This document shows, one piece after another, positions 2,127 through 53,850 of a stretch of 56,995 bases of DNA. The stretch is from IMG/VR virus record IMGVR_UViG_3300044742_000148. One strand, given 5' to 3'. Source of the stretch: a virus. The position numbers and the translations under genes are program-made. The notes beneath the pieces are model-generated. The model saw only the letters and a list, made by a program, of their open reading frames with translations, ran no database searches and was not told the DNA's origin. How positions within the stretch are numbered: position 1 is the first letter of the stretch; each line of letters begins with the position of its first letter.

Positions 2127-2506
2127 CCGGCCTCCCGATCAGCCACGTGGACCTCCAGGCGACCGTGACCGAGGCCCTGCACGTCCTCGGCTGGCGCCAC
2201 CTCCACGTCCGCCGCTCCATCGGGAAGGGCCGCAAGTGGACTACGGCGACGAACGTGGACGGCTGGCCTGACCTGTTCTGCTGGCATCCCGTCGCCCGCC
2301 GACAGTTGGCCATCGAGCTGAAGGTGCCCCCCGACCGCCTCACCCTCGGCCAGTGGCAGGTGCTCCACGACCTCGACGCCGCCGGGGTGGAGACGGCCGT
2401 GCTCGACCCGTCAGACCTGACGTGGCTGGGAGCTCTCCTGGCGCCGAAAGGCCCCCGGCTGGAGCTCCGGATGCTGGAGGCGTTCGCCCCCAAGAACCCG
2501 GGCTAA
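2123..2506 (+). CDS. VRR-NUC domain nuclease
   Basis: ATG 2123 in an ATGA overlap. GWPDLFCWH...LAIELKV (D...ExK restriction-fold core typical of VRR-NUC). Confidence 0.75.
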   Translation: MTGLPISHVDLQATVTEALHVLGWRHLHVRRSIGKGRKWTTATNVDGWPDLFCWHPVARRQLAIELKVPPDRLTLGQWQVLHDLDAAGVETAVLDPSDLTWLGALLAPKGPRLELRMLEAFAPKNPG

Positions 2507-2526
2507 CCGGGCTATGGTTCAGACGC
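2502..2526 (+). promoter_or_regulatory. Degenerate copy of the phage promoter motif (GCTAACCGGGCTATGGT)
   Basis: GCTAAC at 2502..2507 and a -10-like TATGGT at 2513..2518, 8 nt before ATG 2527. There is no RBS in between, so the mRNA is possibly leaderless. Confidence 0.35.
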
Positions 2527-2931
2527 ATGGCAGTCATCAACAACTTGGGGCTGGGCGACCTCGATGGTGAGGCGTTCACCCACACGACCATCAAGCTGAC
2601 CAACGCCGGGGACGGCCTGTCCGACTCGATGCGAGTCGAGCCGTGCTGGCTCAAGACGGGCGACGAGGTATTCGTCATCGTGAAGGCCCACGTGAGCCAG
2701 GTGACCGGCAAGCCGTGGGTCGGCAAGGGCGGAGAGACGGGCCTGGAGCGCATCGTGACCTTGAAGGCGGAGGCCGCCGGGCTCGCCGCCGAGGACCTGG
2801 TCGGCCCGGTCATCGCCGAGATGCAGGTGCGGCTGCGAGAGCTCCGAGACGCCGAGGCCGGTCAGGGGAGCCTGGCGGACCGGATGGGCGACAACGTCAC
2901 CCCCGTCAAGCCCGAGGAGGGCAGCGAATGA
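2527..2931 (+). CDS. Hypothetical protein
   Basis: ATG 2527 is an internal start of ORF 2353..2931 (MAVINNLGLGDLDGEAF...). The upstream part of the ORF is R/P-rich and non-coding-like. Confidence 0.65.
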   Translation: MAVINNLGLGDLDGEAFTHTTIKLTNAGDGLSDSMRVEPCWLKTGDEVFVIVKAHVSQVTGKPWVGKGGETGLERIVTLKAEAAGLAAEDLVGPVIAEMQVRLRELRDAEAGQGSLADRMGDNVTPVKPEEGSE

Positions 2932-3227
2932 GCCAGCGCCAGACCAAGACTCGGAACCCGTCGGTGCAGACCGTCAACGTCGCCGAGGCCATCGCCGAGC
3001 GGGGAGGGTCCGAGGGGCTGCTCGACGCCCTGGCCGACCTCGCCCCGCAGATCGACACGGCCAACAGCGAGCTCCAGCTGCTCTACGACCGGCGCCTGGC
3101 GCTGTGGCGTGAGGGTCGGGAGAGGGCCATCACCCACAAGGTGCTGGCAGCCGCCTCGGGCGTGACGGACGCCCTCGTCGTGCAGACCTTGAAGCGTGCC
3201 GACAAGGCATTGGCCGCAACGGGGTAG
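2928..3227 (+). CDS. Hypothetical protein
   Basis: ATG 2928 in an ATGA overlap. MSQRQTKTRNPSVQ... ends at TAG 3225..3227. Confidence 0.65.
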   Translation: MSQRQTKTRNPSVQTVNVAEAIAERGGSEGLLDALADLAPQIDTANSELQLLYDRRLALWREGRERAITHKVLAAASGVTDALVVQTLKRADKALAATG

Positions 3228-3251
3228 ACGGGCTAACCCGGGTTAGTCTAT
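3224..3251 (+). promoter_or_regulatory. Phage promoter/operator motif copy A
   Basis: Perfect 14-bp palindrome CTAACCCGGGTTAG at 3233..3246 overlaps a -10-like TAGTCT at 3244..3249. GTAGAC lies at 3224..3229, closer than in the other copies. Confidence 0.55.
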
Positions 3252-3297
3252 GCTGGGGGCTCCCAACCAAGCACCACGCCCAAGGAGGCACCCAGTC

Positions 3298-3474
3298 ATG
3301 ACCCGCACCGATTCAGCCCTCGCCCAGCGCCTGCTCAACGCAGTCGGTATCTGCACCATCGACATCAGCACCGTTCCCGGCCAGCCCGCCCGCTCGCTGT
3401 GGGCCAAGTCCGGCGCCCGCTGGGACAACCTCGATCAGGTCTACGAGACGCTGACCGTCGCCTGCGGGTCATGA
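3298..3474 (+). CDS. Hypothetical small protein
   Basis: RBS aaggagg lies upstream of ATG 3298 (internal start of ORF 3250..3474). Confidence 0.6.
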   Translation: MTRTDSALAQRLLNAVGICTIDISTVPGQPARSLWAKSGARWDNLDQVYETLTVACGS

Positions 3475-3895
3475 CCGACCTGTGGGTTCCCCGGGAGGTC
3501 GTCGCCGACCCGGAACGCCGCCAGGGCGACTGCTTCGCCGCCGCCGCCAAGCTCGTGCTCAGCGACCCGTCGTTCACCCTCGTGCACGCCAAGGTAACCA
3601 CCCCCGACAGGGAGACGCCCAGGCGCCCCGACCAGCCCCGTCCCGGGGAGCGCCACGACCACGCCTGGGCCGAGAAGCGGGCCCCCGTGCGGCTGGAGGA
3701 CGGCAAGATGCGCAACACCGTCGTTTGCGTGGACCTGTCCTCCGGCCGCCACGTGGCCGCCCCCCGGGAGCTCTACTACCGGCTCGGCACTACCGGCTCG
3801 GCAAGATCGGCAAGACGTTCCGGTACTCGATGGCCCAGGTGCACCAGCTGGTGACCGAGCACGAGCACTGGGGCCCGTGGAGGGAGCTCCCGTGA
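3471..3895 (+). pseudogene. Hypothetical protein gene interrupted by a 14-bp tandem duplication (frame 0 ends at 3854, the restored frame ends at 3895)
   Basis: ATG 3471 in an ATGA overlap. After 3790 the coding-looking sequence (KIGKTFRYSMAQVHQLVTEHEHWGPW) continues in the frame of ORF 3482..3895. Removing one 14-nt unit joins the two frames. Confidence 0.55.
3777..3804 (+). repeat. 14-bp tandem duplication taccggctcggcac / taccggctcggcaa
   Basis: The two adjacent units are read directly and match at 13 of 14 positions. Confidence 0.9.
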
Positions 3896-4254: not shown

Positions 4255-4439
4255 GCCTCACTCACGGCGTGGCCCTCGTCTGCAACCTGTGTGGCGCCAC
4301 GACGCCGTTTACCGTCTACGACGGCGTGCGCCAGAGGACCAACGCCGTCCACCTTGCCCGGGCTGTCGCCGAGAGCAAAGGCTGGAAGGCCAACCCCGTC
4401 GCCGACATCTGCTCCGTCTGCACGGAGGCTCGGCGATGA
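4251..4439 (+). CDS. Hypothetical zinc-ribbon-like small protein
   Basis: GTG 4251 in a GTGA overlap. Motifs CNLCG and CSVC. Confidence 0.6.
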   Translation: MSLTHGVALVCNLCGATTPFTVYDGVRQRTNAVHLARAVAESKGWKANPVADICSVCTEARR

Positions 4440-6611: not shown

Positions 6612-6620
6612 GCTCGCCCC

Positions 6621-7391
6621 ATGCCTGCCTCCAAGAGCCCCGCCGTCCCCGGTCAACGCCGCCTGGAGTACCTGCCGCTCCGCCAGATCATGAGCGCCCC
6701 CCGGAACCCCAACGGCCACGACCTGCCCGCCATCGCCGCCTCCATCCGCCGGCACGGCTTCGTGGAGCCGGTGGTGGTGGACGAGCGGACCGGGTTCCTC
6801 GTGGGAGGCCACGGCCGCCTGGAGGTGCTCGCCGAGATGCGAGACGCCGGAGAGCAGCCCCCCGAGGGCATCGTGGAGCAGGAGCGAGCCGAGAACGACG
6901 TGGCCGCCGAGCCGGAGTGGCTGGCGCCGACCATCCTGGGCTGGGCGTCCCGCTCAGACGCCGAGGCCGAGGCGCTTCTGCTCGCCATGATGAAGCTCCC
7001 CAAGACGGCCGTCGCCTCGATGGACCTCCTCGCCACGATGCTGGACGAGCTCTCGCAGGGCACCGAGCTCGCCCTCGCCGGGACCGGGTACAGCCCCGAC
7101 GACCTCGATGACATCTTGGCTGGCCTGTCCGAGAGCGCACCCCTGACCGAGCTGGAGTACGGGGACAGTCGCAAGAGCGCCTACCCCGAGCCGTCGTACG
7201 GGGAACGCACCGACAACTACCGCAACAAGCAGGTGCGGGCGATGGTGTTCGACTACCCGCTGGACGATTACGCCCTGGTCGCCGAGATGGCCGCCCGGGC
7301 CCGGGGCGCCTTCGGTGTGCAGTCCAACGCCGAGCTGTTCCAGCGGATGCTGGAGGCGTGGTGCATGCAGAACCCCGAGACGCCCGCATGA
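6621..7391 (+). CDS. ParB/Srx-like N-terminal domain protein
   Basis: LEYLPLRQIMSAPRNPNGH...IRRHGFVEPVVVDERTGFLVGGHGRLEVL matches the ParB N-terminal (ParBc) pattern. Confidence 0.75.
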   Translation: MPASKSPAVPGQRRLEYLPLRQIMSAPRNPNGHDLPAIAASIRRHGFVEPVVVDERTGFLVGGHGRLEVLAEMRDAGEQPPEGIVEQERAENDVAAEPEWLAPTILGWASRSDAEAEALLLAMMKLPKTAVASMDLLATMLDELSQGTELALAGTGYSPDDLDDILAGLSESAPLTELEYGDSRKSAYPEPSYGERTDNYRNKQVRAMVFDYPLDDYALVAEMAARARGAFGVQSNAELFQRMLEAWCMQNPETPA

Positions 7392-8317
7392 GCGACACCG
7401 AGCTCGCCCCCGCCGTCACGGTCCGTCTTGCCCCGCTCGACCCGGAGGCCCGCAAGGCCGCACTCGACCTCCTCGGCAAGGGCGCCGCCCTGGAGCCCCC
7501 CGGGGCGATGATCAAGGCGCCGTGCCTCGTGCGAGCCGGAGACGAGCTCGTGGCAGTCGTTCTCAGGATGCCGCCGGGCCCGCTGGCCTGGGTCCGCAAG
7601 GCGCTTCTCGGCTGGCCGTTCGACACGACCACGTACCGTTCGGCTGGCATCAAGAACAACGCCCGGACGTTCGGCTACCTGGCCCGCAACACGCTCCTGC
7701 AGCGTGACGGCTGCCGGGCCTGCCAGGGCTCCCGGCTGGCGCCCGAGGCCCACCACGGCATCGTGGCCCAGGCAGAGCTCCTGTCCGCCATGCTGGCCGA
7801 GGCCGCCCCAGAGCTCGCCGCCCGGGACCGGGCCGCCGCCGAGGCCGTCTCGCCGGAGTGGCGCATGGGCGACAGCCAGTGGACCTCCGGGGTGGCGAAC
7901 AGCACCTCCGTCCTGCCCTACCACTTCGACCGCAACAACCTGGAGCCCGTCTGGTCAGCGATGATCGTGGTGCGGAGGGGCGTGCGGGGCGGCTACCTCC
8001 ACGTGCCCGAGCTCGGCGCCTCGTTCCACTGCCGAGACGGAGACGTGGTGTGCTTCCCGGGCTGGCGCTTCGTGCATGGCGTCACCCCGGTCAAGATCGT
8101 GGAGCCCGACGGCTACCGCATCTCCGCCGTGTACTACTGCGTGGAGCAGATGCGGGCGTGCGGCACCGGAGCCGAGGAGATGGCCCGGGCACAGCTCGCC
8201 CGCACCAACCGGGAGGCCGACACCAGGCCCACCGTGGACCGCATCCCGGCTGCGATCGCCCGCCGAGATGCCGCTTCCAAGCCCACGGTTGAGGACGACG
8301 AGAGTGACGAGCTGTGA
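7388..8317 (+). CDS. 2OG-Fe(II) dioxygenase acting on nucleic-acid bases (TET/JBP-like; AlkB-like is the alternative)
   Basis: ATGA overlap. H-F-D at 7922..7930, a distal His at 8075..8077 (FVHGVTP), then YRISAVYY. The ligand spacing is 51 and 14 residues. Confidence 0.65.
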   Translation: MSDTELAPAVTVRLAPLDPEARKAALDLLGKGAALEPPGAMIKAPCLVRAGDELVAVVLRMPPGPLAWVRKALLGWPFDTTTYRSAGIKNNARTFGYLARNTLLQRDGCRACQGSRLAPEAHHGIVAQAELLSAMLAEAAPELAARDRAAAEAVSPEWRMGDSQWTSGVANSTSVLPYHFDRNNLEPVWSAMIVVRRGVRGGYLHVPELGASFHCRDGDVVCFPGWRFVHGVTPVKIVEPDGYRISAVYYCVEQMRACGTGAEEMARAQLARTNREADTRPTVDRIPAAIARRDAASKPTVEDDESDEL

Positions 8318-9252
8318 CCCTGAACCCCGACATGGGCGCCCTCGATGACCTCGCCACCTTCGCCCGCATCGAGGTGGAGAGCCGAGACGTGGAGCCGTGG
8401 GCCGACCTCCTCCGCCACCTGTACATGGAGGACGGGGCGCTGAGCCTGGAGGCCGCCCTGTGGCTGGTGGCGCTCTACAACACGTACGACAGCCTGGGCT
8501 CCGCCTGCTCAGTGTTCGCCCGCTGGCCGAGCCCGCACGAGCTCCTGACGGCCGCCGACTTCCCCGACAGCGCCCAGTACGAGTGCACCCAGGAGCGCCG
8601 CAACCTCAGGGGCGGCCTCGTGCTGACCCGCCACGCCTCCTACGGAGCTCTCGTGATGGGCGGAGACGGCACCCAGGCCTACTGGCTCGGCCAGGGCATC
8701 CCCCAGCCCGACGTGACGACTGACTGCTGCGACACCGGAGGCGCCGAGGCCGCCTGGGAGCCGATGACCCGCCACCTCCGCCGAGTGTGGGGCGTGGGCC
8801 GCCAGGCCGCCTTCGAGTGGGCCGAGTTCCTCGCCAAGGTGGTTGGGATGCGGCTGACCGCCCCCCACGCCCAGCTGTGGGAGAGCGAGGGCCCGAGACG
8901 GAGCCTGCAGCGCCTCTACGGCAACCCCGACCCGGACCGGGCGTGGCTGGACGAGGCCGCCCTGGAGTGCCGGGCGTGGCTGCTCTCGCAGGGCATCGAC
9001 CTCTCGTGGGAGGACTTCGAGACGATCATCTGCGACTTCAACGTGATGCGGGACGGCCGCTACTACCCGGGCCGCCACCTGGCCGCCCTCCGGGAGGAGA
9101 TCGACGGCGTGGCCGAGTCGGCGCTCCGGGCCGCCCTGGAGCACGCATGGGAGCAGGTCGTGCCGCCCGAGTGGCAGTGCATTGACCCGGGCATCGACAA
9201 GGCCAAGCTGCCCGTCTACCGGGACTCCGGCCTGATCAGGAGCTCTGCATGA
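8314..9252 (+). CDS. Hypothetical helical protein (function unknown; candidate base-transferase by context only)
   Basis: GTG 8314 in a GTGA overlap. 312 aa. I can name no motif. It sits between the two oxygenase genes. Confidence 0.7.
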   Translation: MTLNPDMGALDDLATFARIEVESRDVEPWADLLRHLYMEDGALSLEAALWLVALYNTYDSLGSACSVFARWPSPHELLTAADFPDSAQYECTQERRNLRGGLVLTRHASYGALVMGGDGTQAYWLGQGIPQPDVTTDCCDTGGAEAAWEPMTRHLRRVWGVGRQAAFEWAEFLAKVVGMRLTAPHAQLWESEGPRRSLQRLYGNPDPDRAWLDEAALECRAWLLSQGIDLSWEDFETIICDFNVMRDGRYYPGRHLAALREEIDGVAESALRAALEHAWEQVVPPEWQCIDPGIDKAKLPVYRDSGLIRSSA

Positions 9253-10316
9253 CGCCCGAGGAGACGGCCCGCTTCCTCAACGGCTACGCCCGCCGCCACG
9301 CCGCCGGGGCGTTCGCCACGCCCCTTGCTCGAGAGTTGAACGACGGCAACGTCCGCATCTGGAAGAACCCGCTCGGCCGCACTGTCGCCGTGACCAAGCG
9401 GCTGACCCGGGACAGCGTCCGCACCGACTGGCTCGGCCAGCCGTACACGCTTCCCCGGGGCGCCACCATCGTGACGCACCTCGGCCGGGAGACGGGCTCC
9501 CCCATCCCAGCCGACCTGGACGAGTACCACGCCATCTACGCCTACGCCGACGACCTGGAGCTGACCGCCGGGCTGGGCCGCCTCGGCCGGGAGGTCACAG
9601 CCACGAGGATCAGCGCCGCCTCCGAGATGATCCACTGCTGGGGGTGGCCGGGCACCGCCCGCCCGACGCCCCTCCTCGACGGCCTGACCGTGGTGCCGGT
9701 CGCCACGCACTCGGGCGACCTCCTCAACGCCTGCCGCCGAGAGCTCGCCCGGGCGACGGGGTGGGCCGATGACTACCCGTTCTACTCAGACGGCTCCTGG
9801 TCGGCGCTGTCCCTCCGGGGCTTCGACCCGGACCCGGCCTGGGGGGTGAAGCCCGCCGAGATGGGCCGCAAGTGGAACGACGCCCACCCGGGGGCTCTCC
9901 GCCGGACGTGCGTCTGGACCGACCTCGCCGACCGCTGCCCCACCCTCGTGCAGATCGCCTCGCAGCTGCCCGGGGCCGGGCTGGAACGGGTCCGCCTGAT
10001 GCGCATGAAGCAGGGGAAGCTCGCCCGCCACACCGACATCACCGACAAGGCCAGCGGCCTCCGGGACGGGCAGATCGCCCGCTTCCACCTGCCCCTGATC
10101 ACCAGCGAGCTCGTCGCCCTCCACGTCTGGGAGCTGTCCGGGGAGCTCCACAACTGGCACCTCGACGTGGGCGTCTGGTACTACCTCGACGCCCGCAAGC
10201 CGCACGCCGTCACCCAGGGCGACCCTGACCTCGACCGCATCCACCTCGTCGCCGACGTCATCTGCGACGAGTCCACCCGCTCCTACCTGGAGGCTTCATG
10301 CTCGGCTGCTACCTGA
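9249..10316 (+). CDS. Two-domain protein with a C-terminal Asp/Asn beta-hydroxylase-type (cupin) 2OG-Fe(II) oxygenase domain
   Basis: ATGA overlap. KLARHTDITD (His at 10029..10031), IARFHLPLIT, YYLDARKPHAV. The N-terminal ~170 aa are unassigned. Confidence 0.65.
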   Translation: MTPEETARFLNGYARRHAAGAFATPLARELNDGNVRIWKNPLGRTVAVTKRLTRDSVRTDWLGQPYTLPRGATIVTHLGRETGSPIPADLDEYHAIYAYADDLELTAGLGRLGREVTATRISAASEMIHCWGWPGTARPTPLLDGLTVVPVATHSGDLLNACRRELARATGWADDYPFYSDGSWSALSLRGFDPDPAWGVKPAEMGRKWNDAHPGALRRTCVWTDLADRCPTLVQIASQLPGAGLERVRLMRMKQGKLARHTDITDKASGLRDGQIARFHLPLITSELVALHVWELSGELHNWHLDVGVWYYLDARKPHAVTQGDPDLDRIHLVADVICDESTRSYLEASCSAAT

Positions 10317-10861
10317 TCGGCCAACCTGGCGCCGGCAAGTCCACCCTGTTCCGGGAGGTGACCCAAGGCATTCCGAGCTACGAGAGCTCCCAGCCGTTCG
10401 CCCACACCGTGTACCTGCCCGAGCCGTCGGGGGGCCGCCCGATCGGCGCTCAGCTGGGCCGCCACCACGAGACGTTCCCGGGTACCGACCGCCTCAGCAT
10501 GGCCGTCCAGCCCGACGCCGAGGCGTGGGTGCGCTCCGCCCCCTACCCCGTCATCATCGGCGAGGGCGACCGTCTCGCCACGCTCGGCTTCCTCACAGCA
10601 CTGACGGAGGCGTGCGACGAGGGCTGCACCATCCTGTGGCTGGACACGCCCCAGTTGACCGCCAGGGCCCGGGCGACCCGCCGGGGCTCAGCCCAGACGG
10701 AGGCGTGGGTGAAGGGCCGCCGCTCCAAGGTCAACCGGCTGACCGACCTCCTGCCGGTGGTCCGGCTCGACGGCACCCTCAGCCCGGAGCTTCTCGCCGT
10801 GCAGGCCATCGGGGCGTCCCCCGCCTTGCAGGCGCTCCACGCCCTGGTGCCCGGCCTCTGA
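10298..10861 (+). CDS. Small P-loop kinase/NTPase
   Basis: RBS ggagg before ATG 10298. Walker A LIGQPGAGKSTL. 187 aa. 19-nt overlap with the upstream gene. Confidence 0.7.
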   Translation: MLGCYLIGQPGAGKSTLFREVTQGIPSYESSQPFAHTVYLPEPSGGRPIGAQLGRHHETFPGTDRLSMAVQPDAEAWVRSAPYPVIIGEGDRLATLGFLTALTEACDEGCTILWLDTPQLTARARATRRGSAQTEAWVKGRRSKVNRLTDLLPVVRLDGTLSPELLAVQAIGASPALQALHALVPGL

Positions 10862-10875
10862 CCAGGCTCGTCCCG

Positions 10876-10908
10876 GTAGACGCCCCAGGCTAACCCGTGT
10901 TAGCCTGG
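10876..10908 (+). promoter_or_regulatory. Phage promoter/operator motif copy B
   Basis: GTAGAC-N7-GCTAACCCGTGTTAGCCTGG. The arms GCTAAC and GTTAGC are perfectly complementary. It lies 50 nt upstream of ATG 10959. Confidence 0.6.
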
Positions 10909-13527: not shown

Positions 13528-13730
13528 CCCTCCTGGCCGGAGCTCACCTCCACGTCGCCACGGACGCCTTCGGCACCCTCCGCCTGACGGCTACCCGCCG
13601 GGGCGTCTGGACCACTATCGCCATCCCCAACATGCCCTACCGGGCCGACGCCCAGGGCGTCCTCGACGTCACTCTGGCGATGCTCGACGCCCGCCTCGCC
13701 GAGGAGGAACAGGCAGGCTCCGGGGCGTAG
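13524..13730 (+). CDS. Hypothetical small protein
   Basis: ATG 13524 in an ATGA overlap. Ends at TAG 13728..13730, inside the next promoter motif. Confidence 0.55.
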   Translation: MTLLAGAHLHVATDAFGTLRLTATRRGVWTTIAIPNMPYRADAQGVLDVTLAMLDARLAEEEQAGSGA

Positions 13731-13759
13731 ACCACCGGGGCTAACCCGTGTTAGTCTGG
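13727..13759 (+). promoter_or_regulatory. Phage promoter/operator motif copy C (leaderless configuration)
   Basis: GTAGAC 13727..13732, GCTAAC 13740..13745, TAGTCT 13752..13757. Only 6 nt separate the -10 element from ATG 13764 and there is no RBS. Confidence 0.6.
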
Positions 13760-13763
13760 GGCT

Positions 13764-13964
13764 ATGACAACCACCCAGCCCAAGAGGCACCCGCTGGTCG
13801 GCTGCAAGATCACCGACAACGGCATCGTTGGCGGCCTGACCGGCCGCATCGTCCACGTCTTCCCCGACGCCATCTCCGTCAGCTGGAACGGCAGCGAGCA
13901 GGCGTCCCAGATCAGCCTCGCCCGCATCAAGGCCGGGCAGTTCAGCGTGGAGGTGGCAGCATGA
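13764..13964 (+). CDS. Hypothetical small protein
   Basis: ORF 13764..13964 starts immediately after promoter copy C. Confidence 0.6.
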   Translation: MTTTQPKRHPLVGCKITDNGIVGGLTGRIVHVFPDAISVSWNGSEQASQISLARIKAGQFSVEVAA

Positions 13965-14197: not shown

Positions 14198-14213
14198 ACG
14201 CCCCAGCAGAGCT

Positions 14214-14284: not shown

Positions 14285-14300
14285 GGGCAGGCTCCCCCAC

Positions 14301-14333
14301 GTAGACGCCCCCGGCTAACCCGTGTTAGTCTGG
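14301..14333 (+). promoter_or_regulatory. Phage promoter/operator motif copy D
   Basis: GTAGAC-N7-GCTAACCCGTGTTAGTCTGG, followed by RBS aggagg and ATG 14365. Confidence 0.6.
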
Positions 14334-17051: not shown

Positions 17052-17690
17052 ATGGCACGCCCCCGCAACAGCTCCCTCCCCGACGAGGGCGGGCAGCCCT
17101 CCCGCATCAGCGAAGTCGTCCGCTACCGGGAAGCCACCGACGCCGACGGCGTGACCAACATGGTCCCCTTCACCCTCGGCGAACAGATAGTCGAACGGGT
17201 CCGCACCGGCCTCGACCTCACCGACGCCGCCGCCTCCGCCAACATCACCAAGCAGACCATCTGGAACTGGCGCCGAAGGGGAGCCCTCAACCGGGCCCTC
17301 CTCGCCCAAGGCAAACCCCTCGCCACCGACGACGGAGACGCCTACGTCAAGTTCGTTGATGCACTGGAAAGAGCCGAAGCCGAGGCAGAGCTCGTCCGCC
17401 TCGCCATCATCCAGAGGGCCGCCGAAGGGGGCTTCAAGACAACCCGGGAGACGATCAAGTACGACGCCGCCGGGGACGTCCTGGAGCGCACCGTCGTGAC
17501 GGAGGTCAGCCTGCCGCAGTGGACGGCAGCCGCCTGGTATCTGGAGCGCCGCCACGCCCGCAAGTACGGCCGCAAGAGCCAGCTCGCCGCCGAGGCGCTG
17601 TCGGGCCTCCTCCACGCCCACGACGACGGAGACGACGAGGCGCTGCGCACGGAGGCGCTGATCGCCATGGCCCAGGAGTTCGGCACGTAG
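17052..17690 (+). CDS. Terminase small subunit (putative)
   Basis: Lies immediately upstream of the large terminase. HTH-like ANITKQTIWNWRRRGAL. Internal ATG of ORF 16938..17690. Confidence 0.6.
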   Translation: MARPRNSSLPDEGGQPSRISEVVRYREATDADGVTNMVPFTLGEQIVERVRTGLDLTDAAASANITKQTIWNWRRRGALNRALLAQGKPLATDDGDAYVKFVDALERAEAEAELVRLAIIQRAAEGGFKTTRETIKYDAAGDVLERTVVTEVSLPQWTAAAWYLERRHARKYGRKSQLAAEALSGLLHAHDDGDDEALRTEALIAMAQEFGT

Positions 17691-17701
17691 GCTCCCCGCT
17701 C

Positions 17702-19432: not shown

Positions 19433-19643
19433 CCACGCTGATGACGGCCCACAGGAGGGCCGAGAGGATCAGCCACCCTCCGGCCACGATGGCGATGACG
19501 ATCGCCCACGCCCGGAAGTGGTTCCGCCAGGGGATGGGCGGCCCCGTGTCGGCCACCCTCCGGCCGCCGACCTCGTAGATGCCCGGGTTGCGAGGCGCCC
19601 CGGCCCTTGGCTGAGGCTCGACCTTGGGCTCACCCCAGCCCAT
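19425..19643 (-). CDS. Small membrane protein (72 aa)
   Basis: ATG 19643 shares its A with the upstream TGA (TGATG). C-terminal TM helix AWAIVIAIVAGGWLILSALLWAVI. Confidence 0.6.
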   Translation of the reverse strand: MGWGEPKVEPQPRAGAPRNPGIYEVGGRRVADTGPPIPWRNHFRAWAIVIAIVAGGWLILSALLWAVISVAT

Positions 19644-19903
19644 CAGCGACAGCTCCGGCACCCGGTCCGGTCCTGCACCGCCGTGTAGGCGCCCTCCGCC
19701 GTGGTGATGCGCCACGTCCTGTTCCCCACCTTCGAGACGGACAGGACGCCCTCGACCTCCTCGTTGACGGTGCCGTCTGCGGACCGGAGCGCCAGCTTGC
19801 CTCCACGAGTGAGGAGCTGGACCTTGCCCCAGGACCGTTGCGGCCCGCCGTTCAACGGGTCGAACGTGACGGATGATGCCCTGAAAGCAGCGGTGGCGGC
19901 CAT
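19643..19903 (-). CDS. Hypothetical protein (86 aa)
   Basis: ORF 19643..19903 on the minus strand with coding-like composition (MAATAAFRASSVTFDPLNGG...). Confidence 0.6.
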   Translation of the reverse strand: MAATAAFRASSVTFDPLNGGPQRSWGKVQLLTRGGKLALRSADGTVNEEVEGVLSVSKVGNRTWRITTAEGAYTAVQDRTGCRSCR

Positions 19904-19946
19904 GGCCAGCCACGCTACCCCGGGGAGCTCTCCCGGGCCGGGTTGG

Positions 19947-20222
19947 TCAGGCCGGGTCGCCGACCCGCCGGATCGTGATGAAGCACAGCATCGTGTGCGG
20001 CGTGCGATTCTCCATGAACAGGGTGCCGTCGCCGTTGACCGTCTGGTGCTTCCCGTCGCCGACGCAGTTGATCGCCGTCTCCGTCCGCCCGACCTTGGCG
20101 TCGATGGAGATGCCGACCGACACCTTGGGTGTGGGCGCCTGGCGTGGAGCGGCAGCCACGACGTTCACCCAGAGGCCGACCGGCCAGACTGCGATGCAGG
20201 CGACGAGCAGGACACGGCGCAT
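19947..20222 (-). CDS. Secreted or lipoprotein-like small protein (91 aa)
   Basis: Internal ATG 20222 in a TGATG overlap with the MerR-like gene. MRRVLLVACIAVWPVGLWVNVVAAAP is signal-like, with a possible LVAC lipobox. Confidence 0.6.
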   Translation of the reverse strand: MRRVLLVACIAVWPVGLWVNVVAAAPRQAPTPKVSVGISIDAKVGRTETAINCVGDGKHQTVNGDGTLFMENRTPHTMLCFITIRRVGDPA

Positions 20223-20608
20223 CAGGCGAGGGCGAGCTCGTGCTGCCCGGCCCGGTCCCAGCACCAGCCGAGGTCGATGACCCAACCGGCGCCCTCGCTC
20301 AGGTGCGGAGTGTCGCCGAGCTCTCGCCGGGCGCCAGCCGGGTCGGGCGTGACCACCAGCACCCCAGCCCACGGGCCCGGAAGCTCCATCGCCCACTCCG
20401 CCATCGAGGCGAGCGTGGAGTAGTCCGCCCCGAGCCGGAACAGGCAGCCCCACAGCGCCGTGACGGCCACGTGCCGAGGGTGCCACTCTCGGGAGACACC
20501 AGAGCCGGGGCGTGCGGGGACGTCCGGGTAGAGGCCCATGCGGTGCCAGTAGTCCAGCTGCCGGTAGGTGACGCCCGCCTGGCGGCAGACGTCTGCTGAT
20601 GTCAACAC
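20222..20608 (-). CDS. MerR-family HTH DNA-binding protein
   Basis: RBS gaggagg 7 nt before GTG 20608. VLTSADVCRQAGVTYRQLDYWHRMGL is a MerR-type HTH. Confidence 0.7.
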   Translation of the reverse strand: MLTSADVCRQAGVTYRQLDYWHRMGLYPDVPARPGSGVSREWHPRHVAVTALWGCLFRLGADYSTLASMAEWAMELPGPWAGVLVVTPDPAGARRELGDTPHLSEGAGWVIDLGWCWDRAGQHELALA

Positions 20609-20683
20609 GGGCTCACCTCCTCGTCCACGGCGCACACCTTCGAGCGTATCCACAGCCTGGGGACTGCGCTGGTGATACCCCGA

Positions 20684-20693: not shown

Positions 20694-20715
20694 GTAAACG
20701 GGCAGGCTCCGCCGG

Positions 20716-20748
20716 GTAGACGCCGGGGGCTAACCCGGGTTAGTCTGG
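20716..20748 (+). promoter_or_regulatory. Phage promoter/operator motif copy E
   Basis: GTAGAC-N7-GCTAACCCGGGTTAGTCTGG with the perfect palindrome CTAACCCGGGTTAG at 20730..20743, followed by RBS aggagg and ATG 20777. Confidence 0.6.
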
Positions 20749-24915: not shown

Positions 24916-25254
24916 GTGGCCGGGCCCTCACCGTTGCTCGTCCGACACGACGTGCCTGGGGCCCCGGGTCAACCCCTGGGCCGCCTCCACTCCACCCGAG
25001 CTCTCGACGCCTCATGCTGGTGCAGCCCGTGCTGGGAGGGCATCTGGGTCGTGCACCACGAGACGTGCCCGGGCTGTCGTGGCTACGGCCTCCACGAGGA
25101 GCGTGGCCTTGTGTTCGACAAGCCGTGCCGGGAGTGCCGGGGGGTAGGGTTCTTCCCATGCGCCTCGCCCAAGGGTTCGCCTTCCTCGCCGCCGTCGTCG
25201 GTTACCTCGTGCTGTACCGGGCCCGAGCCCGAACGGGCAGGTAGCGGGGCGTAG
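24916..25254 (+). CDS. DnaJ-type zinc-finger (CxxCxGxG x2) small protein
   Basis: CPGCRGYG and CRECRGVG. GTG 24916 follows ggtggggg. The 3' end is uncertain (see 25158..25244). Confidence 0.5.
   Translation: MAGPSPLLVRHDVPGAPGQPLGRLHSTRALDASCWCSPCWEGIWVVHHETCPGCRGYGLHEERGLVFDKPCRECRGVGFFPCASPKGSPSSPPSSVTSCCTGPEPERAGSGA
25158..25244 (+). CDS. Possible 28-aa TM peptide in the -1 frame, overlapping the zinc-finger gene tail
   Basis: MRLAQGFAFLAAVVGYLVLYRARARTGR. Its GC3 is clearly higher than that of the overlapping frame. Confidence 0.3.
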   Translation: MRLAQGFAFLAAVVGYLVLYRARARTGR

Positions 25255-25283
25255 ACGCCCGGGGCTAACCCGTGTTAGCCTGA
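25251..25283 (+). promoter_or_regulatory. Phage promoter/operator motif copy F (leaderless configuration)
   Basis: GTAGAC 25251..25256, GCTAAC 25264..25269, TAGCCT 25276..25281. 6 nt separate the -10 element from ATG 25288 and there is no RBS. Confidence 0.6.
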
Positions 25284-25287
25284 GGTC

Positions 25288-25518
25288 ATGACACCTCAGC
25301 CCACAGCGGCCCCCGCCTGGTACGCCGCCGAGTTCCGCACGTTCGCCGTCCGCATCGGCCGCAACCACCGCCACTACCTGTCGGTCAAGCAACTGGTCGA
25401 GAACCTGGGCGGCCACCGCTCGCCCGGCTCTGGCGGCTACTTCACGGTCACCTGCCACCCCGGCCACGTTGGCACCTTCGAGGCTTGCGGCGCCCGGGTC
25501 ACCGAGGCCGCCCGATGA
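25288..25518 (+). CDS. Hypothetical small protein
   Basis: ORF 25288..25518 starts directly after promoter copy F. Confidence 0.6.
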   Translation: MTPQPTAAPAWYAAEFRTFAVRIGRNHRHYLSVKQLVENLGGHRSPGSGGYFTVTCHPGHVGTFEACGARVTEAAR

Positions 25519-37400: not shown

Positions 37401-37436
37401 CCGGGAAAGTTTCCGCATCTGGGCAGGTTCGGGGGC

Positions 37437-37468
37437 GTAGACGGAGCGGCTAATCGCTGTTAGTCTGG
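37437..37468 (+). promoter_or_regulatory. Phage promoter/operator motif copy G
   Basis: GTAGAC-N6-GCTAATCGCTGTTAGTCTGG (one-base-shorter spacer, variant centre). Confidence 0.55.
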
Positions 37469-38210: not shown

Positions 38211-38254
38211 GCGCCCCCCGTCCACACCAGGGCCGGGGGGCGCTCTGCGTTCTC
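38211..38254 (+). terminator. Intrinsic terminator candidate
   Basis: 10-bp stem gcgccccccg/cggggggcgc (38211..38243) followed by tctgcgttctc. Confidence 0.5.
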
Positions 38255-38260
38255 GGGGCC

Positions 38261-38281
38261 GCTAACCCCGGTAACGTCTGG
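38261..38281 (+). promoter_or_regulatory. Degenerate promoter motif copy I (leaderless configuration)
   Basis: GCTAACCCCGGTAACGTCTGG. The -10-like ACGTCT at 38274..38279 lies 6 nt before ATG 38286. Confidence 0.4.
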
Positions 38282-38285
38282 CGCC

Positions 38286-40052
38286 ATGCGCATCGCCTAC
38301 ATCGGCAACTTCACCCGCCCCTGGTGCACCGAGGTCCACGTGGCCGCCGCCCTCACCGAGCTCGGCCACAGCGTGGTCCGTCTCCAGGAGAACCGCACCC
38401 AGCTCGACCAGCAGACCAAGGCCCTGCTCCACGGGGGCAACCGGCCGGGCCGCCTCGGGCAGGCGCCCCCGGACCTGTTCATCTGGACTCGCACGTGGGG
38501 CGTGCCGCCCGCCCAGGCGAACGGGATGCTGGAACAGCTGCGGGCCGCCGGGGTGCCCATCGTGTCGTTCCACCTGGACCGCTACCTCGGCATCGAGCGT
38601 GAGGGGATGGTGGACTCGGAGCCGTTCTTCCGGACGGACCTCCTGTTCACGCCCGACTCGGGCGACTGGGCCGCCCACGGTGTGCGGGCCCACTGGATGC
38701 CGCCGGGGGTGGACCGGGCCGAGGCCAACGCCGTGTACCGGCCGAACCCCAAGCGGTGGCCGTGGAAGGTGGTCATGGTCGGGAGCTTCCCGTACCCGCA
38801 CCCCGACTGGCACCCGGTACGAGCGGAGGTCGTCTCTCATCTGAGAGCCCGTTACGGAGACGCCTTCGCCGTGCTGCCCGCCGATCAGGGGGGCCGACCG
38901 ATCCGCAACGCCGACCTGGGGGAGCTCTACGCCACCGTGCCGGTGGTGGTGGGCGACAGCTGCTGGGCCGGGATGGCCGACGACCCGGGCGGCTACTGGT
39001 CCGACAGGGTGACCGAGACGCTGGGCCGGGGCGGCTACCTCATCCACCCGCACAGCGCCAAGCTCGCCGAGATGTACCCCGACCTCGCCCTCTACAGCCT
39101 GGGCAACATGGACGAGCTCGGCACGCTGATTGACGAGGTGCTGGAGCCCCCGAACGACCTGATCGCTGCCGCTGTGGCGAGGGCCCGGGTCCGCAACAGG
39201 GAGCTCGTGCTCGGCCGGGACACCTACGCCCACCGCATGGAGGAGCTTCTGGTCACAGCGATGGACGCCGCCCAGATCAGGGAAGCGTCCCGGCCTGTGC
39301 CGCCAGCCCCTCCGCCGAGGGCCCTGAGGAGGGCCCCTCGTGTGCCGGAGAGCCCCGAGGTCGCCGCCGCTGCCCAGACGGTCACTGGCACCTACCGGCC
39401 CCGCAGGCTGCGTCATACGTTCCGCTGGGCTGAGGGCGTCTCCGACAGCCACGCCGTCAAGGAGGTGTGGGACAACGACGACTACGGGATGGCCGGGCTT
39501 CCGCTGGCCGGGGCGACCGTCATCGACGTCGGCGCCAACCTGGGCGCCTTCTCCGTGCTGGCGGCCATGCTCGGCGCCCGAGACGTGCACGCCTACGAGC
39601 CTCACCCGGAGACGTTCGCCTGCCTGCTCGAGAACGTGGCGGCCTGCAGGGTGGCGAACAGGATCACGTGCCACAACCACGCCGTGGGGGGCTGGGCCCG
39701 GGTGGATGCGCTGGTGGGCTCTGGGGGTGGCGCTCACATCGGGGCCGGGGTGGACGGGCCCGAGGTGGCTGTGCTCGACATCTCGGCCGTGCTGGAGCCG
39801 GTCCAGGGGGAGGTCGTTCTGAAGCTGGACTGCGAGGGCTCCGAGTACGAGATCATCGACGGGCTGGCCGACGCTGACTGGGCGAAGGTCAAGGCGGTGG
39901 TGATGGAGTGGCACGGGCCCGGCATGCCCCACCTGGCCCACATCGACCTCGACCGCTGGGGGCCGATGGTCCAGCGTCTGGCCGACCACGGGGCGTTGAC
40001 GATCAAGGGCCACCCGCATCTGGGTGGGCTTCTGTGGTGCAGGAGGTACTGA
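38286..40052 (+). CDS. Fusion of a CgeB-like glycosyltransferase domain and an FkbM-family methyltransferase domain
   Basis: Internal ATG 38286 of ORF 38094..40052. The N-terminal part ends ...DRVTETLGRGGYLIHP...RDTYAHRMEELL. The C-terminal part has VIDVGANLGAFSV...MEWHG. Confidence 0.7.
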   Translation: MRIAYIGNFTRPWCTEVHVAAALTELGHSVVRLQENRTQLDQQTKALLHGGNRPGRLGQAPPDLFIWTRTWGVPPAQANGMLEQLRAAGVPIVSFHLDRYLGIEREGMVDSEPFFRTDLLFTPDSGDWAAHGVRAHWMPPGVDRAEANAVYRPNPKRWPWKVVMVGSFPYPHPDWHPVRAEVVSHLRARYGDAFAVLPADQGGRPIRNADLGELYATVPVVVGDSCWAGMADDPGGYWSDRVTETLGRGGYLIHPHSAKLAEMYPDLALYSLGNMDELGTLIDEVLEPPNDLIAAAVARARVRNRELVLGRDTYAHRMEELLVTAMDAAQIREASRPVPPAPPPRALRRAPRVPESPEVAAAAQTVTGTYRPRRLRHTFRWAEGVSDSHAVKEVWDNDDYGMAGLPLAGATVIDVGANLGAFSVLAAMLGARDVHAYEPHPETFACLLENVAACRVANRITCHNHAVGGWARVDALVGSGGGAHIGAGVDGPEVAVLDISAVLEPVQGEVVLKLDCEGSEYEIIDGLADADWAKVKAVVMEWHGPGMPHLAHIDLDRWGPMVQRLADHGALTIKGHPHLGGLLWCRRY

Positions 40053-44932: not shown

Positions 44933-44948
44933 TCTAGGCTCCGGCGCC

Positions 44949-49283: not shown

Positions 49284-49284
49284 C

Positions 49285-52207: not shown

Positions 52208-52593
52208 GCAAGGTCGTGGCGGGCATGCTCGTGTTCGTCCTGGCGGTCAACTGGGACCCGATCGTGACGGGCGTCCTCCTCGCCGTGGGCACGCTCGTGT
52301 CCGTCGCCGTGGTGAAGTTCGGGGGCGCCTGGCTCCTCCGGTCCGCCAAGGAGGACTTCCAGGACAGCATCCGGCAGGTCGTCAGGGCCGAGATGCGCTC
52401 GTCCGGGAAGCGTCTCGCCCCGACGTTCGAGAAGGCCGCCAAGGACATCGCCTGGTGCAAGGAGGAGCTCTCCGAGCACAACGGGGAGACGATGAAGGAC
52501 GCCATCGTGCGGACCGAGTACCGGGTGGCCCGCAACACCAAGGTGCTGAAAGAGGTCGCCGACAGGGTGGGGCTGGAGCTGGACTTTGACTAA
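52204..52593 (+). CDS. Membrane protein, holin-like (two N-terminal TM helices)
   Basis: GTG 52204 in a GTGA overlap. VVAGMLVFVLAVNWDPIVTGVLLAVGTLVSVAVV. Lies directly upstream of the amidase gene. Confidence 0.5.
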   Translation: MSKVVAGMLVFVLAVNWDPIVTGVLLAVGTLVSVAVVKFGGAWLLRSAKEDFQDSIRQVVRAEMRSSGKRLAPTFEKAAKDIAWCKEELSEHNGETMKDAIVRTEYRVARNTKVLKEVADRVGLELDFD

Positions 52594-53359
52594 CTACCCG
52601 TACGTGCCCGCCCGGCTGGCGTGGCCCCGCCCGGCCGCCTGCTGGCCGCCATCGTTGGGCGTGGTGCACGACATGGAGGCCCCTGAGGGCCCGCTGACCG
52701 CCGAGAACTGCGCCCGGTACTTCCAGAGCTCCGCCGCCCAGGGCTCGACGCACCTGTGCTGCGACGAGGACAGCACCGTGCGGTGCGTGCGGGACACCGA
52801 GAAGTCAGCCGGGGCGAAGGGCTACCCGTACCGGGGGCGCTCCGTCAACGACTGGGCCCTGCAGATCGAGCACGCCGGGTACGCACGCCAAAGCCGAGCG
52901 GAGTGGCTGGACCGCAGCTCCCGTCGGACGATGGAGCAGGGCGCCCGGGCGTTCGCCCGCTGGTCGGACCTGTACGTGATCCCGCCGTTCCGCCTGACGG
53001 ACGCCGAGATCAGGTCGGGCATGCACGGGCTGTGTGGGCATGGCGACATCACCCGTGCGCTGAAGGTCGGGGGCGGCCACACCGACCCGGGCTTCGGCTT
53101 CCCGTGGGACGTTTACCTGGAGATGATCCGGACCTTCAAGGAGGATGAAGTGTGGACGCCTGAGGAGAAGGCCCGGCTGCTCGCCGGGGCCGACGCCAGC
53201 GTGCGGATGGACCAGCGGTGGAACGCCGACGCCCGCACCAAGCTGGAGGAGGTGTGGACGAACCTGATGGACCGGGACGACCCCGACCCCGGCTTCCGCA
53301 AGGGGACGGTGGGGGCGATGGTGCAGCGCATCCTCTACCCCGAGCCGACCGAGCCGTAG
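52586..53359 (+). CDS. Endolysin, N-acetylmuramoyl-L-alanine amidase (Amidase_2/PGRP fold)
   Basis: VVHDMEAPEG, LQIEHAGY and GHGDITR...GGHTDPGFGFPWD. The start is uncertain (TTG 52586 or GTG 52604). Confidence 0.8.
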   Translation: MTNYPYVPARLAWPRPAACWPPSLGVVHDMEAPEGPLTAENCARYFQSSAAQGSTHLCCDEDSTVRCVRDTEKSAGAKGYPYRGRSVNDWALQIEHAGYARQSRAEWLDRSSRRTMEQGARAFARWSDLYVIPPFRLTDAEIRSGMHGLCGHGDITRALKVGGGHTDPGFGFPWDVYLEMIRTFKEDEVWTPEEKARLLAGADASVRMDQRWNADARTKLEEVWTNLMDRDDPDPGFRKGTVGAMVQRILYPEPTEP

Positions 53360-53369
53360 GCTGCCCGCC

Positions 53370-53699
53370 ATGCGACTCATTGCACGACTCCAGGCCTCGG
53401 GGCGCCTCGCTGGGGACGCCGGGGCCATCACTGACAACTGGCCCGACTGGCTGCGTGCGGCCTCCCGGACTGCCGTGCAGACGTTCGTGGGCATGTTCGG
53501 CCTGTCCCTCGTCGGCTGGCTGGCCGATGTGGGCGCCTGGGCCGGAAGCTCCGAGGGGACGTTCCCGTCCGTCTCGCCGCTCGGCAAGGCCGCCGTCGCC
53601 GCTCTCGTGGCAGCCGCCTCGGGCGTCGTGGCCGCCCTCATGAACGTCTTCGGGAAGCGCTCTGCGACCTATCCAACGCCCCCGCCTGCTGGGGGGTAG
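53370..53699 (+). CDS. Holin (r1t-like)
   Basis: AASRTAVQTFVGMFGLSLVGWL plus a second TM helix AAVAALVAAASGVVAAL. Lies after the endolysin gene. Confidence 0.55.
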   Translation: MRLIARLQASGRLAGDAGAITDNWPDWLRAASRTAVQTFVGMFGLSLVGWLADVGAWAGSSEGTFPSVSPLGKAAVAALVAAASGVVAALMNVFGKRSATYPTPPPAGG

Positions 53700-53720
53700 G
53701 CTCTCGGGCGTTGGGGCTGG

Positions 53721-53802
53721 GCGACCGGCCACCTGCACCAGAAGGGCTCCAGTTGGGTTCGCACCTCTCGGAGCTCGGGGCTGGCGCTGGGTGGCCGGTC
53801 GC
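53721..53802. repeat. 13-bp perfect inverted repeat GCGACCGGCCACC / GGTGGCCGGTCGC with a 56-nt spacer
   Basis: Arms at 53721..53733 and 53790..53802, read directly. There is an inner 5-bp pairing gctcc/ggagc. Confidence 0.85.
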
Positions 53803-53818
53803 AGTCCGTTCTGCCCCA

Positions 53819-53850
53819 GTAGCCTCGCCCGCTAACCCGGGTTAGACTGG
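53819..53850 (+). promoter_or_regulatory. Phage promoter/operator motif copy H
   Basis: GTAGCC-N6-GCTAACCCGGGTTAGACTGG with the perfect palindrome at 53832..53845, followed by RBS aggagg and ATG 53877. Confidence 0.55.

Follow-up and report, generated by a model that had tools for sequence, protein, structure and literature searches.

Repeated intergenic motifs have been reported in many actinobacteriophage clusters, usually with function unknown. An unusually legible case is found in the IMG/VR record IMGVR_UViG_3300044742_000148, a viral stretch of 56,995 nucleotides (here called the window, meaning the whole of the analysed DNA), in which eight near-identical elements, each composed of a GTAGAC-like hexamer, a short spacer and a 14-bp palindrome that runs into a TAGNNT hexamer, stand ahead of genes. 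In this case distant relatives resolve the motif into what appears to be a host-type promoter and a separate 14-bp operator. The explanation that we favour, with moderate confidence, is that the elements are sigma-A promoters, that each carries an operator, and that the operator is bound by a LacI-family regulator of the host.

A sharply bounded family of eight elements

Both a pattern search and a position weight matrix (PWM) recovered the eight strong copies of the preliminary description where it had placed them, all on the + strand (Table 1). The pattern GCTAACCCGKGTTAGYCTGG, with up to three mismatches, gave 12 matches, made up of the eight sites and reverse-strand images of the palindrome, against none in 100 shuffles, and the stricter string GTAGAC-N7-GCTAAC occurs exactly five times. 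With a 22-nt PWM the eight sites score 30.1-39.4 bits, whereas every other + strand position scores at most 8 bits and the null maximum averages 10.4 bits, a gap which indicates that the family is sharply bounded at eight. The tetranucleotide TTAG is found nine times on the + strand, eight of them within the motif. Two further sites that had been listed as degenerate copies, at 2502-2526 and 38261-38281, are not members, as both score below 8 bits and the orthologous positions in relatives lack the motif; the relative L005 carries unrelated sequence at the place orthologous to 38261. The palindrome is perfect over 14 bp at 3233-3246, 20730-20743 and 53832-53845, as had been described.

Every copy is either intergenic or overlaps the stop codon of the upstream gene, and every copy lies ahead of a + strand gene. 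The intergenic gap is at least 40 bp for seven of the eight; copy 13727 overlaps the upstream stop in a 33-bp gap. At 3225-3227 and 13728-13730 the TAG of GTAGAC is itself the stop codon. That all copies share one strand is true, but it carries little weight because all genes but four are on the + strand.

Relatives carrying the motif, for which a search had been suggested at the outset, were gathered by pattern scans and by a helicase-based search, and they form three sets. Group A (L001-L005 and L007-L010) shares approximately 50-100% amino acid identity with the window, and approximately 70-90% for most genes; its members are syntenic with the window and have the motif at the same positions. 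Group B is the 101-kb IMG/VR contig IMGVR_UViG_3300006846_000001 (L006, L095-L097 and L099-L104), of which 87% was retrieved. Its helicase is 44% identical to that of the window, a handful of other proteins are common to both, and it contains 23 distinct copies of the motif, all on one strand. The third set comprises groundwater metagenome contigs that are relatives of group B and keep the palindrome arms. Together, the 19 distinct sites of group A and the 23 of group B gave 42 sites for comparison. A scan in which palindrome positions 6 and 9 were left free returned the same phages and one new contig, with no further multi-copy phage group centred on GCGC, and no prophage copy or multi-copy locus was found in 185,579 genomes (one genome per species).

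The comparison also showed the element to be longer than first described. In six of the eight copies a further block, GCAGGCTCC, is present exactly 14 nt ahead of GTAGAC (at 10862, 13713, 14287, 20702, 25237 and 37423, with the variants GCAGGTAGC, GCAGGTTCG and CCAGGCTCG), which corresponds to about -51 to -43. It is found in most group A relatives and is absent from group B; it co-occurs with a MerR-like gene that is likewise confined to group A.

The elements as probable promoters of the host type

The eight elements very probably have promoter activity, to judge from the hexamers, spacing and start distances that they share with their relatives. They would be the main promoters of the phage and would be read by the host housekeeping sigma-A (HrdB-type) RNA polymerase. 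The -10 hexamer is TAGNNT in all eight window copies and in 42 of 42 distinct sites, with positions 1, 2, 3 and 6 invariant and positions 4 and 5 free (TAGTCT, TAGACT, TAGCCT, TAGGGT and TAGGCT in group A; TAGTGT, TAGTAT, TAGGGT, TAGCAT, TAGGAT and TAGCGT in group B). Genome-wide mapping of transcription start sites in Streptomyces avermitilis yielded a -10 of TANNNT and a -35 of BTGACN, and showed that 22% of mRNAs are leaderless, with AUG preferred on leaderless messages (PMC8780764). An invariant T1, A2 and T6 around a free middle is thus the signature of an actinobacterial -10.

The -35 is less uniform. In the window TAGACN is found 17-18 bp from the -10, within the 16-19 bp expected of this promoter class, in six of the eight copies and TAGCCT in one, and copy 3224 has no aligned hexamer. 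Of the 23 group B sites, in which 18 bp separate the two hexamers, nine have TTGACC or TTGACA where the window has TAGACN, three have TCGACA and three TAGACN itself, and two more read CTAGAC over the same interval. The alignment with TTGACC indicates that GTAGAC in the window contains the -35 (TAGACN), one mismatch from TTGAC. The spacing of 19 nt between GTAGAC and TAGNCT that had been noted holds in five of the eight copies (copy 3224 is short by 5 bp, and copies 37437 and 53819 by 1 bp), and it is an ordinary 18-bp spacer because the hexamer had been counted one base off. With TTGACC at -35 in relatives, an invariant TAGNNT and leaderless ATGs, the earlier view of the motif as a promoter of the sigma-70 type is well supported.

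An ATG lies 6-8 nt past the -10 in 21 of the 23 group B sites. In the window the ATGs of the open reading frames (ORFs) at 13764 and 25288, both supported by GC content at third codon positions (GC3), lie exactly 6 nt past it, a distance kept in L001, L009 and L007. Such distances are those expected if the transcripts are leaderless and begin with the A of the ATG. Transcription would start 6-7 nt downstream of the -10, and two of the promoters would yield leaderless mRNAs whose first base is that A. The remaining six copies have leaders of approximately 21-190 nt that end in AGGAGG-type ribosome sites. In half of the window copies TGT precedes the -10, giving an extended -10, and in 10 of the 19 group A sites palindrome position 10 is T rather than G, which produces TGT-TAGNNT at the expense of perfect symmetry. 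In group B the conserved cassette reaches into the coding sequence, as most of the 21 leaderless genes begin with ATGAGCAC (Met-Ser-Thr), and some 20 unrelated proteins thus share their first three residues.

A scan with the E. coli consensus (TTGACA/TATAAT, at least 9 of 12 positions) found none of the copies, a terminator scan found none either, and nothing else of note emerged; the failure of the consensus scan is expected because these are high-GC actinobacterial promoters. Start-associated sequences (SAS/ESAS), which are placed like ribosome sites a few bp ahead of the start codon, were considered as a class and rejected, as the motif lies anywhere between 6 and 194 nt from the start and AGGAGG sites exist in addition to it.

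One might ask whether the near identity of the copies reflects a polymerase or sigma factor encoded by the phage itself, since near-identical promoter copies of approximately 45 bp recall those of the T7 type, and some Microbacterium phages with a similar order of virion genes do encode a sigma factor (PMC7302621). The chance of this appears remote. Among approximately 60 window ORFs scanned with PHROGs and/or Pfam there was no RNA polymerase, sigma factor, integrase or repressor, the elements show canonical sigma-A hexamers, spacing and start distance, and a bacterial chromosomal promoter of the same design exists (see below).

The palindrome as a candidate operator

The 14-bp palindrome, CTAACC-CG-(G/T)GTTAG, spans -23 to -10 when the predicted start is +1. 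Its right arm, GTTAG, provides G-14 and the TAG of the -10, whereas for its left arm, CTAAC (-23 to -19), we know of no role in sigma-A recognition. Nevertheless, the left arm is as invariant as the -10 in group A, group B and the groundwater contigs (with a single CTAAT), whereas no such constraint is seen in the 7-8 nt that separate it from the -35. The constancy of the palindrome across lineages whose helicases are 44% identical, next to a spacer that varies, points to an operator. The palindrome is thus a predicted protein-bound site, and we consider this likely; a dyad recognised at the DNA level by a dimeric protein would be the simplest reading. A dimeric helix-turn-helix protein at -23 to -10 would cover the -10 and shut the promoter, and all operons of the phage could thereby come under the control of a single protein. 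Complementarity does not continue beyond the 14 bp. In the 42 sites pairing of the flanks was at shuffle level in 15 of 16 tests, the remaining one (P = 0.0055) not surviving multiple-testing correction, and an extended palindrome was rejected.

The same conservation might arise with no dedicated binder, if the palindrome belonged to an unusually strong promoter cassette in which the right arm served as an extended -10 and the left arm contacted RNA polymerase or acted as spacer, or if recombination homogenised the copies. The right arm does overlap the -10, its G at -14 and the TGT fit the actinobacterial extended -10 as we know it, and the cassette of the 101-kb relative continues into the first codons. 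The invariance of the left arm beside a free spacer is difficult to accommodate in this way, gene conversion is unable to explain identity between separate lineages, and in host genomes a second palindrome lies downstream of the promoter, outside any -35/-10 context, where it would be an operator and not a promoter part. A promoter cassette with no binder of its own is accordingly judged decidedly improbable.

Alternatively, transcripts that read through the palindrome could form a hairpin there that terminates them, marks a processing site or stabilises them. Its copies are placed at operon boundaries, and copy 10876 can form an 11-bp stem (-20.2 kcal/mol, z = -4.5), but the seven other copies fold no better or only modestly better than shuffles (z from -0.03 to -2.2). 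The stem shared by the copies has 5 bp, is A/U-rich in a genome of 71% GC, and lacks a U tract; no complementarity or covariation extends past the 14-bp core in the 42 sites; the predicted start lies downstream of the hairpin; and there was no match in Rfam. A role in RNA is therefore highly improbable, and a DNA operator remains the preferred reading of the palindrome.

A literature search found the core of the phage 14-mer only in cloning primers, with no biological context. The novelty lies in a predicted operator that is fused to all of the promoters, that stays constant between lineages, and that matches the operator of a host regulator.

Candidate binders encoded by the phage

The idea of an operator for one dimeric regulator, put forward in the preliminary description, gains from the constancy of the palindrome across lineages, but the three binders that it named (the MerR-like protein, WhiB and the helix-turn-helix protein at 56137) are unsupported. 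None of them has a detectable homologue, by tblastn and phmmer, in the retrieved part of group B, which keeps the identical palindrome. The 56137 protein resembles an O-like replication initiator (RepO-like). The MerR-like protein, by eye, has no obvious long coiled-coil helix after its helix-turn-helix, and the MerR-like, ParB-like and DUF6011 proteins had no sequence match in PDB.

In promoters of the MerR type a palindrome lies between -35 and -10, within an overlong spacer of 19-20 bp, with its dyad at mid-spacer. The elements of the window resemble these in having a palindrome between the two hexamers, and a MerR-like gene lies divergently beside one copy. The class was nevertheless rejected, as the spacer to the aligned TTGACC is 18 bp and the dyad is centred at about -16.5, which is not mid-spacer. 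Co-occurrence with a cognate MerR was not found either, the gene being present in group A and undetected in the retrieved 87% of group B. An inverted repeat, GTATCCAC...GGTGATAC, lies upstream of the MerR-like gene, at 20646-20678 in the divergent region; its form GTATCC-N21-GGATAC is kept in L007, beside a conserved TACGCT/TACGGT on the minus strand, and it may be the operator and promoter of the MerR-like protein itself, acting locally.

A regulator encoded by the phage, whether MerR-like or a small protein of unknown fold, would be a classical phage design, and it could turn the promoters off or on as part of a temporal programme or a carrier state. In its favour are the position of the MerR-like gene next to copy 20716 and its conservation in the close relative L007, and the fact that about half of the scanned ORFs have no family assignment, which leaves room for such a protein. 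On the other hand, operators of phage-encoded repressors usually diverge quickly, while this 14-mer is constant between phages that are otherwise far apart. No protein seen in both lineages stands out as a sequence-specific binder; the ParB-like protein aligns only in its N-terminal GHGR domain, and the ORF scan and genome search described above gave no integrase, repressor or prophage copy. On this evidence a phage-encoded binder appears unlikely.

A host LacI-family regulator as candidate binder

The best candidate for the binder comes from the host and not from the phage. It is a conserved repressor of the LacI family that would control an ABC-transport operon for oligosaccharides. The genome scan returned 23 scattered single matches, among which that of Microbacterium oleivorans (strain NBRC 103075, NZ_BCRG01000011.1, L115) stood out. 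Here TTGACG-N7-CTAACCCGGGTTAGCAT and, 32 bp further downstream, a second site, TTAACCCGGGTTAG, immediately precede the genes for a LacI-family regulator of 338 aa and an SBP_bac_5 ABC transporter. The operator is identical to the 14-mer of the phage, and the same two-site arrangement is found in a bioreactor metagenome contig. The regulator of M. oleivorans has an altered hinge (NASAQALA in place of NAGARALA) and is the sole one with CCGG-centred operators.

Orthologs of this regulator, 67-89% identical, occur in Microbacterium, Streptomyces, Luteimicrobium, Terrabacter, Nonomuraea and other genera, and adjoin the SBP_bac_5 ABC transporter and often a GH32 hydrolase as well. In seven of the eight further loci inspected (L239-L246) at least one operator of the form CTAAC-N-CG-N-GTTAG, with one mismatch allowed, lies upstream of the orthologous gene; the Nonomuraea locus gave no match in the operator scan, and in the Streptomyces locus just one full copy is evident. 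Most of the inspected loci have TTGACN, then 6-8 nt, then a palindrome that overlaps a TAGCAT or TAAGGT -10, and a second copy approximately 30 bp downstream (pairs such as CTAACTCGCGTTAGCAT with CTAACGCGAGTTAGT, CTAACCCGCGTTAGCAT with CTAACACGCGTTAGC, and CTAACGCGCGTAAGGT with TTAACGCGCGTTAGG). In M. testaceum two more copies precede the GH32 hydrolase gene. The nine loci with at least one recognised operator gave the host consensus CTAAC-N-CG-N-GTTAG, written as the motif CTAACNCGNGTTAG.

All 12 specified positions of this consensus are matched by seven of the eight window copies, in the same register to the -35 and -10, and the N-CG-N centre is present in 18 of 19 group A and approximately 18 of 23 group B sites. 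Together, the two arms (CTAAC and GTTAG) and the central CpG are, on sequence grounds, the predicted footprint of a conserved actinobacterial LacI-type repressor. The predicted promoter of the repressor itself has the same design as those of the phage, with TTGACN, 7-8 nt, and CTAAC-N-CG-N-GTTAG overlapping a TAGCAT -10. The two differ in that the host promoter has its second operator approximately 30 bp downstream, which the phage copies lack, and in that host operators mostly have a GCGC or TCGC centre, whereas those of the phage (CTAACCCGGGTTAG and CTAACCCGTGTTAG) have CCGG or CCGT. No helix-turn-helix of the LacI type was detected in six-frame ORFs of the window or the 101-kb relative with a hidden Markov model of the LacI helix-turn-helix region. 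A conserved host binder would explain why the operator has not drifted between divergent phage lineages. Taken by itself, the assignment to the host LacI-type repressor is tentative, and the protein is best described as a possible binder.

Several observations weigh against this assignment and against the explanation favoured here. Copy 3224 has lost 5 bp and with them an aligned -35, and the palindrome of copy 37437 is degenerate (CTAAT, with a GC centre). The four bases at the centre differ among the groundwater relatives (CCCG, CACG, ACCG, CGGG), and the CpG there is often shifted or lost, although hinge helices of the LacI type normally need a central CpG. The host locus was found through a search with the phage motif, and its promoter register was thus partly imposed by the pattern. 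The regulator is known from several actinobacterial genera, and for it to be the binder the host of the phage would have to carry it as well. A repressor present in few copies would be titrated quickly by the 8-24 operators on each replicating genome, and the outcome in the cell might be a derepressed host operon and not a silenced phage. Lastly, many small phage ORFs have no detectable fold, which again leaves room for a phage-encoded binder.

A more far-reaching claim would be that every promoter bears the operator of a host sugar or oligosaccharide repressor of the LacI family, and that the phage borrows a metabolic sensor and has no immunity repressor of its own; this we regard as doubtful. 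No publication with the host operator sequence or a description of this regulator's autoregulated promoter was found in the literature, and nothing relevant was found on natural phage promoters under a host LacI-type repressor.

Comparison with other phage repeats

Among the systems to which the motif had been likened, the conserved inverted repeats of phiC31 are the closer in logic, and the comparison with the stoperators of Cluster A phages is loose. The phiC31 repeats are 17 bp long, occur in many copies at lytic promoters and are bound by the phage repressor; the phage is temperate, encodes this repressor, and has early promoters that are not sigma-A-like. The likeness lies in the control of a genome by one protein through many inverted repeats, and the difference in the repressor and integrase, neither of which was seen among the window ORFs scanned. 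Stoperators are asymmetric 13-mers, located within and between genes and mostly off promoters, oriented to transcription and bound by the lysogen repressor. They share with the window many copies of a short site and the prospect of genome-wide silencing by one protein, but membership of this class was rejected, because the sites in the window are symmetric, all eight are inside promoter-like elements, and there are no orphan copies.

A further parallel is offered by the Cluster O mycobacteriophages, for which 8-9 strongly predicted SigA-like promoters have been described, several of them predicted to be leaderless; these phages have no integrase, are not obviously temperate, and contain dyad repeats predicted to bind a dimeric protein (PMC4351075). 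A host-type promoter set, predicted leaderless mRNAs, dyad-symmetric repeats, no integrase (in the window, among the approximately 60 ORFs scanned) and no obvious sign of a temperate life style are features in common. The 17-bp palindrome of Cluster O, TGTTCGGNNNCCGAACA, is present in more than 30 copies that are mostly off promoters (PMC4351075), whereas that of the window is found only inside promoters.

Among Microbacterium phages, clusters EC, EG, EI and EF have motifs in 5-12 copies of the same orientation, in short intergenic gaps upstream of start codons, that are of unknown function and were not interpreted as promoters (PMC7302621). The 18-bp inverted repeat of Cluster EG, GATCAACCNNGGTTGATC, shares the core AACCNNGGTT with the window palindrome (PMC7302621); the distance of the EG repeats to start codons is 14-22 bp, and their sequences differ from the window motif. 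The order of capsid, tail and adaptor genes in the window resembles that of the Cluster EI phage MementoMori, in whose genome the window palindrome is not present. Finally, the composite promoter plus stem-loop repeats (PeSLs) of T4-like phages are proposed to mediate modular shuffling (PMC4122927). They are similar in being a conserved, promoter-containing cassette repeated between gene modules, and dissimilar in that the stem-loop of the window is part of the promoter itself.

The phage genome and its other features

The window has a GC content of 71% along its full length, and bases 1-127 are identical to 56869-56995, which indicates that it is a circular assembly of approximately 56,868 bp and a complete phage genome. 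By GC3-based gene calling nearly all genes are on the + strand, four small minus-strand genes at 19425-20608 excepted. Recognised genes include those for replication and recombination (a DnaC-like loader, a helicase, and Gam-like, Sak4-like and O-like replication-initiator proteins), for packaging and the virion (TerS, TerL, portal, major head protein, major tail protein and head-tail adaptor), and for a ParB-like protein, WhiB and an endolysin. An ORF of 1040 aa, situated where a tape-measure protein would be expected, is a candidate for it by position. Scans for Rfam families and tRNAs were empty.

No close or near-identical relative was found among GenBank phages; the terminase and capsid match solely actinobacteriophages, at 29-45% identity, and an identical terminase is encoded on contigs of 56.8-57.0 kb from several metagenome assemblies, with differing start points. 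As far as these matches tell, the window is an uncultivated actinobacterial phage that is widespread in the sampled metagenomes.

Table 1. Promoter-like elements of the window and other features with their positions (copies are named by the first base given to them in the preliminary description)
Feature	Coordinates	Strand	Sequence elements	Start and downstream gene	Remarks
Copy 1 (3224)	3224..3251	+	GTAGAC shifted by 5-bp deletion, no aligned -35; palindrome CTAACCCGGGTTAG 3233-3246; -10 TAGTCT 3244-3249	predicted transcription start ~3256; ATG 3298	PWM 34.1 bits; ortholog in L004/L010 has full spacing
Copy 2 (10876)	10862..10908	+	block CCAGGCTCG 10862; -35 TAGACG 10877-10882; 18-bp spacer; palindrome 10890-10903; TGT-extended -10 TAGCCT 10901-10906	ATG 10959 (DUF932 gene)	alone in having arms that extend into a 10+10 inverted repeat; identical in L003, kept in L001/L009
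Copy 3 (13727)	13713..13766	+	block GCAGGCTCC 13713; -35 TAGACC 13728-13733; palindrome 13741-13754; -10 TAGTCT 13752-13757	ATG 13764, 6 nt past -10; leaderless mRNA predicted	same ATG distance in L001 and L009; ORF 78-81% identical from residue 1
Copy 4 (14301)	14287..14333	+	block 14287; -35 TAGACG 14302-14307; palindrome 14315-14328; -10 TAGTCT 14326-14331	ATG 14365 behind AGGAGG	GC hairpin and TGTTTG immediately upstream
Copy 5 (20716)	20702..20748	+	block 20702; -35 TAGACG 20717-20722; perfect palindrome 20730-20743; -10 TAGTCT 20741-20746	ATG 20777 (DUF6011 protein)	divergent from four minus-strand genes; conserved in L007
Copy 6 (25251)	25237..25290	+	block GCAGGTAGC 25237; -35 TAGACG 25252-25257; palindrome 25265-25278; -10 TAGCCT 25276-25281	ATG 25288, 6 nt past -10 (leaderless mRNA predicted)	same distance in L007; heads WhiB-portal-capsid block
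Copy 7 (37437)	37423..37468	+	-35 TAGACG 37438-37443; 17-bp spacer; palindrome CTAATCGCTGTTAG 37450-37463; -10 TAGTCT 37461-37466	~190-nt leader to ATG 37661	most deviant copy; PWM 33.3 bits; ortholog in L005 carries consensus CTAACCCGGGTTAG
Copy 8 (53819)	53819..53850	+	-35 TAGCCT 53820-53825 (3/5 matches); 17-bp spacer; perfect palindrome 53832-53845; -10 TAGACT 53843-53848	ATG 53877 (Gam-like gene, start of replication/recombination block)	PWM 30.1 bits; conserved in L010
MerR-like helix-turn-helix protein	20222..20608	-			128 aa; Pfam MerR_1, E=6e-5; 80% identical in L007
TGT/DpdA-like transglycosylase	7388-8317				part of hypermodification run
Amino acid:DNA transferase	8314-9252				PF18724
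Asp/Arg-hydroxylase-like protein	9249-10316				part of hypermodification run
P-loop nucleotide kinase 3	10298-10861				PF18751

Several other features of the genome deserve mention. Genes at 7388-10861 form a run for DNA base hypermodification, and the phage DNA is probably hypermodified; a thymidine modification, if present, could affect recognition of A/T-containing bases in the promoter and operator. The head genes are unusually arranged. The portal-like ORF (26232-30068) encodes 1278 aa with portal homology confined to residues 8-563, a second ORF (30424-31944) matches portal, protease and virion-protein families, and the terminase genes (17052-19432) lie approximately 7 kb away from the portal, with the minus-strand genes in between.

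In the 268-bp gap downstream of the gene for the O-like replication initiator, a tandem CATAACCCC CATAACCCC at 56653-56669 may represent origin iterons. The hexamer GAGCTC occurs 136 times genome-wide, against approximately 18 expected from base composition; the excess is mostly Glu-Leu, as 92 of the 136 are in-frame Glu-Leu codon pairs, and 12 lie within approximately 3.7 kb of intergenic DNA (for example at 14209, 19925, 21709, 36552, 36587 and 37481), often in or beside GC-rich hairpins such as CCCCGGGGAGCTCTCCCGGG. The stretch 38211-38288 contains a GC-rich hairpin, GCGCCCCCCG...CGGGGGGCGC, that has a T-rich tail, and after it TAACGT, placed 8 nt ahead of the ATG at 38286. L005 has TAAGGT 7 nt ahead of the same ATG; this region is probably a terminator together with an unrelated promoter of the leaderless type for a glycosyltransferase/methyltransferase gene.

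Implications

The comparison yields a complete predicted transcription map for a widespread but uncultivated phage, and the cassette itself would be a compact promoter for actinobacteria of high GC content, probably a strong one and perhaps inducible. If the operator is indeed that of the host LacI-family repressor, the lytic programme would be silent until the host sees an inducing carbohydrate, or else the replicating genomes would titrate the repressor and turn on the uptake operon of the host. Such a system would show clearly how a phage that looks virulent can have all of its promoters wired to a nutrient sensor of its host.

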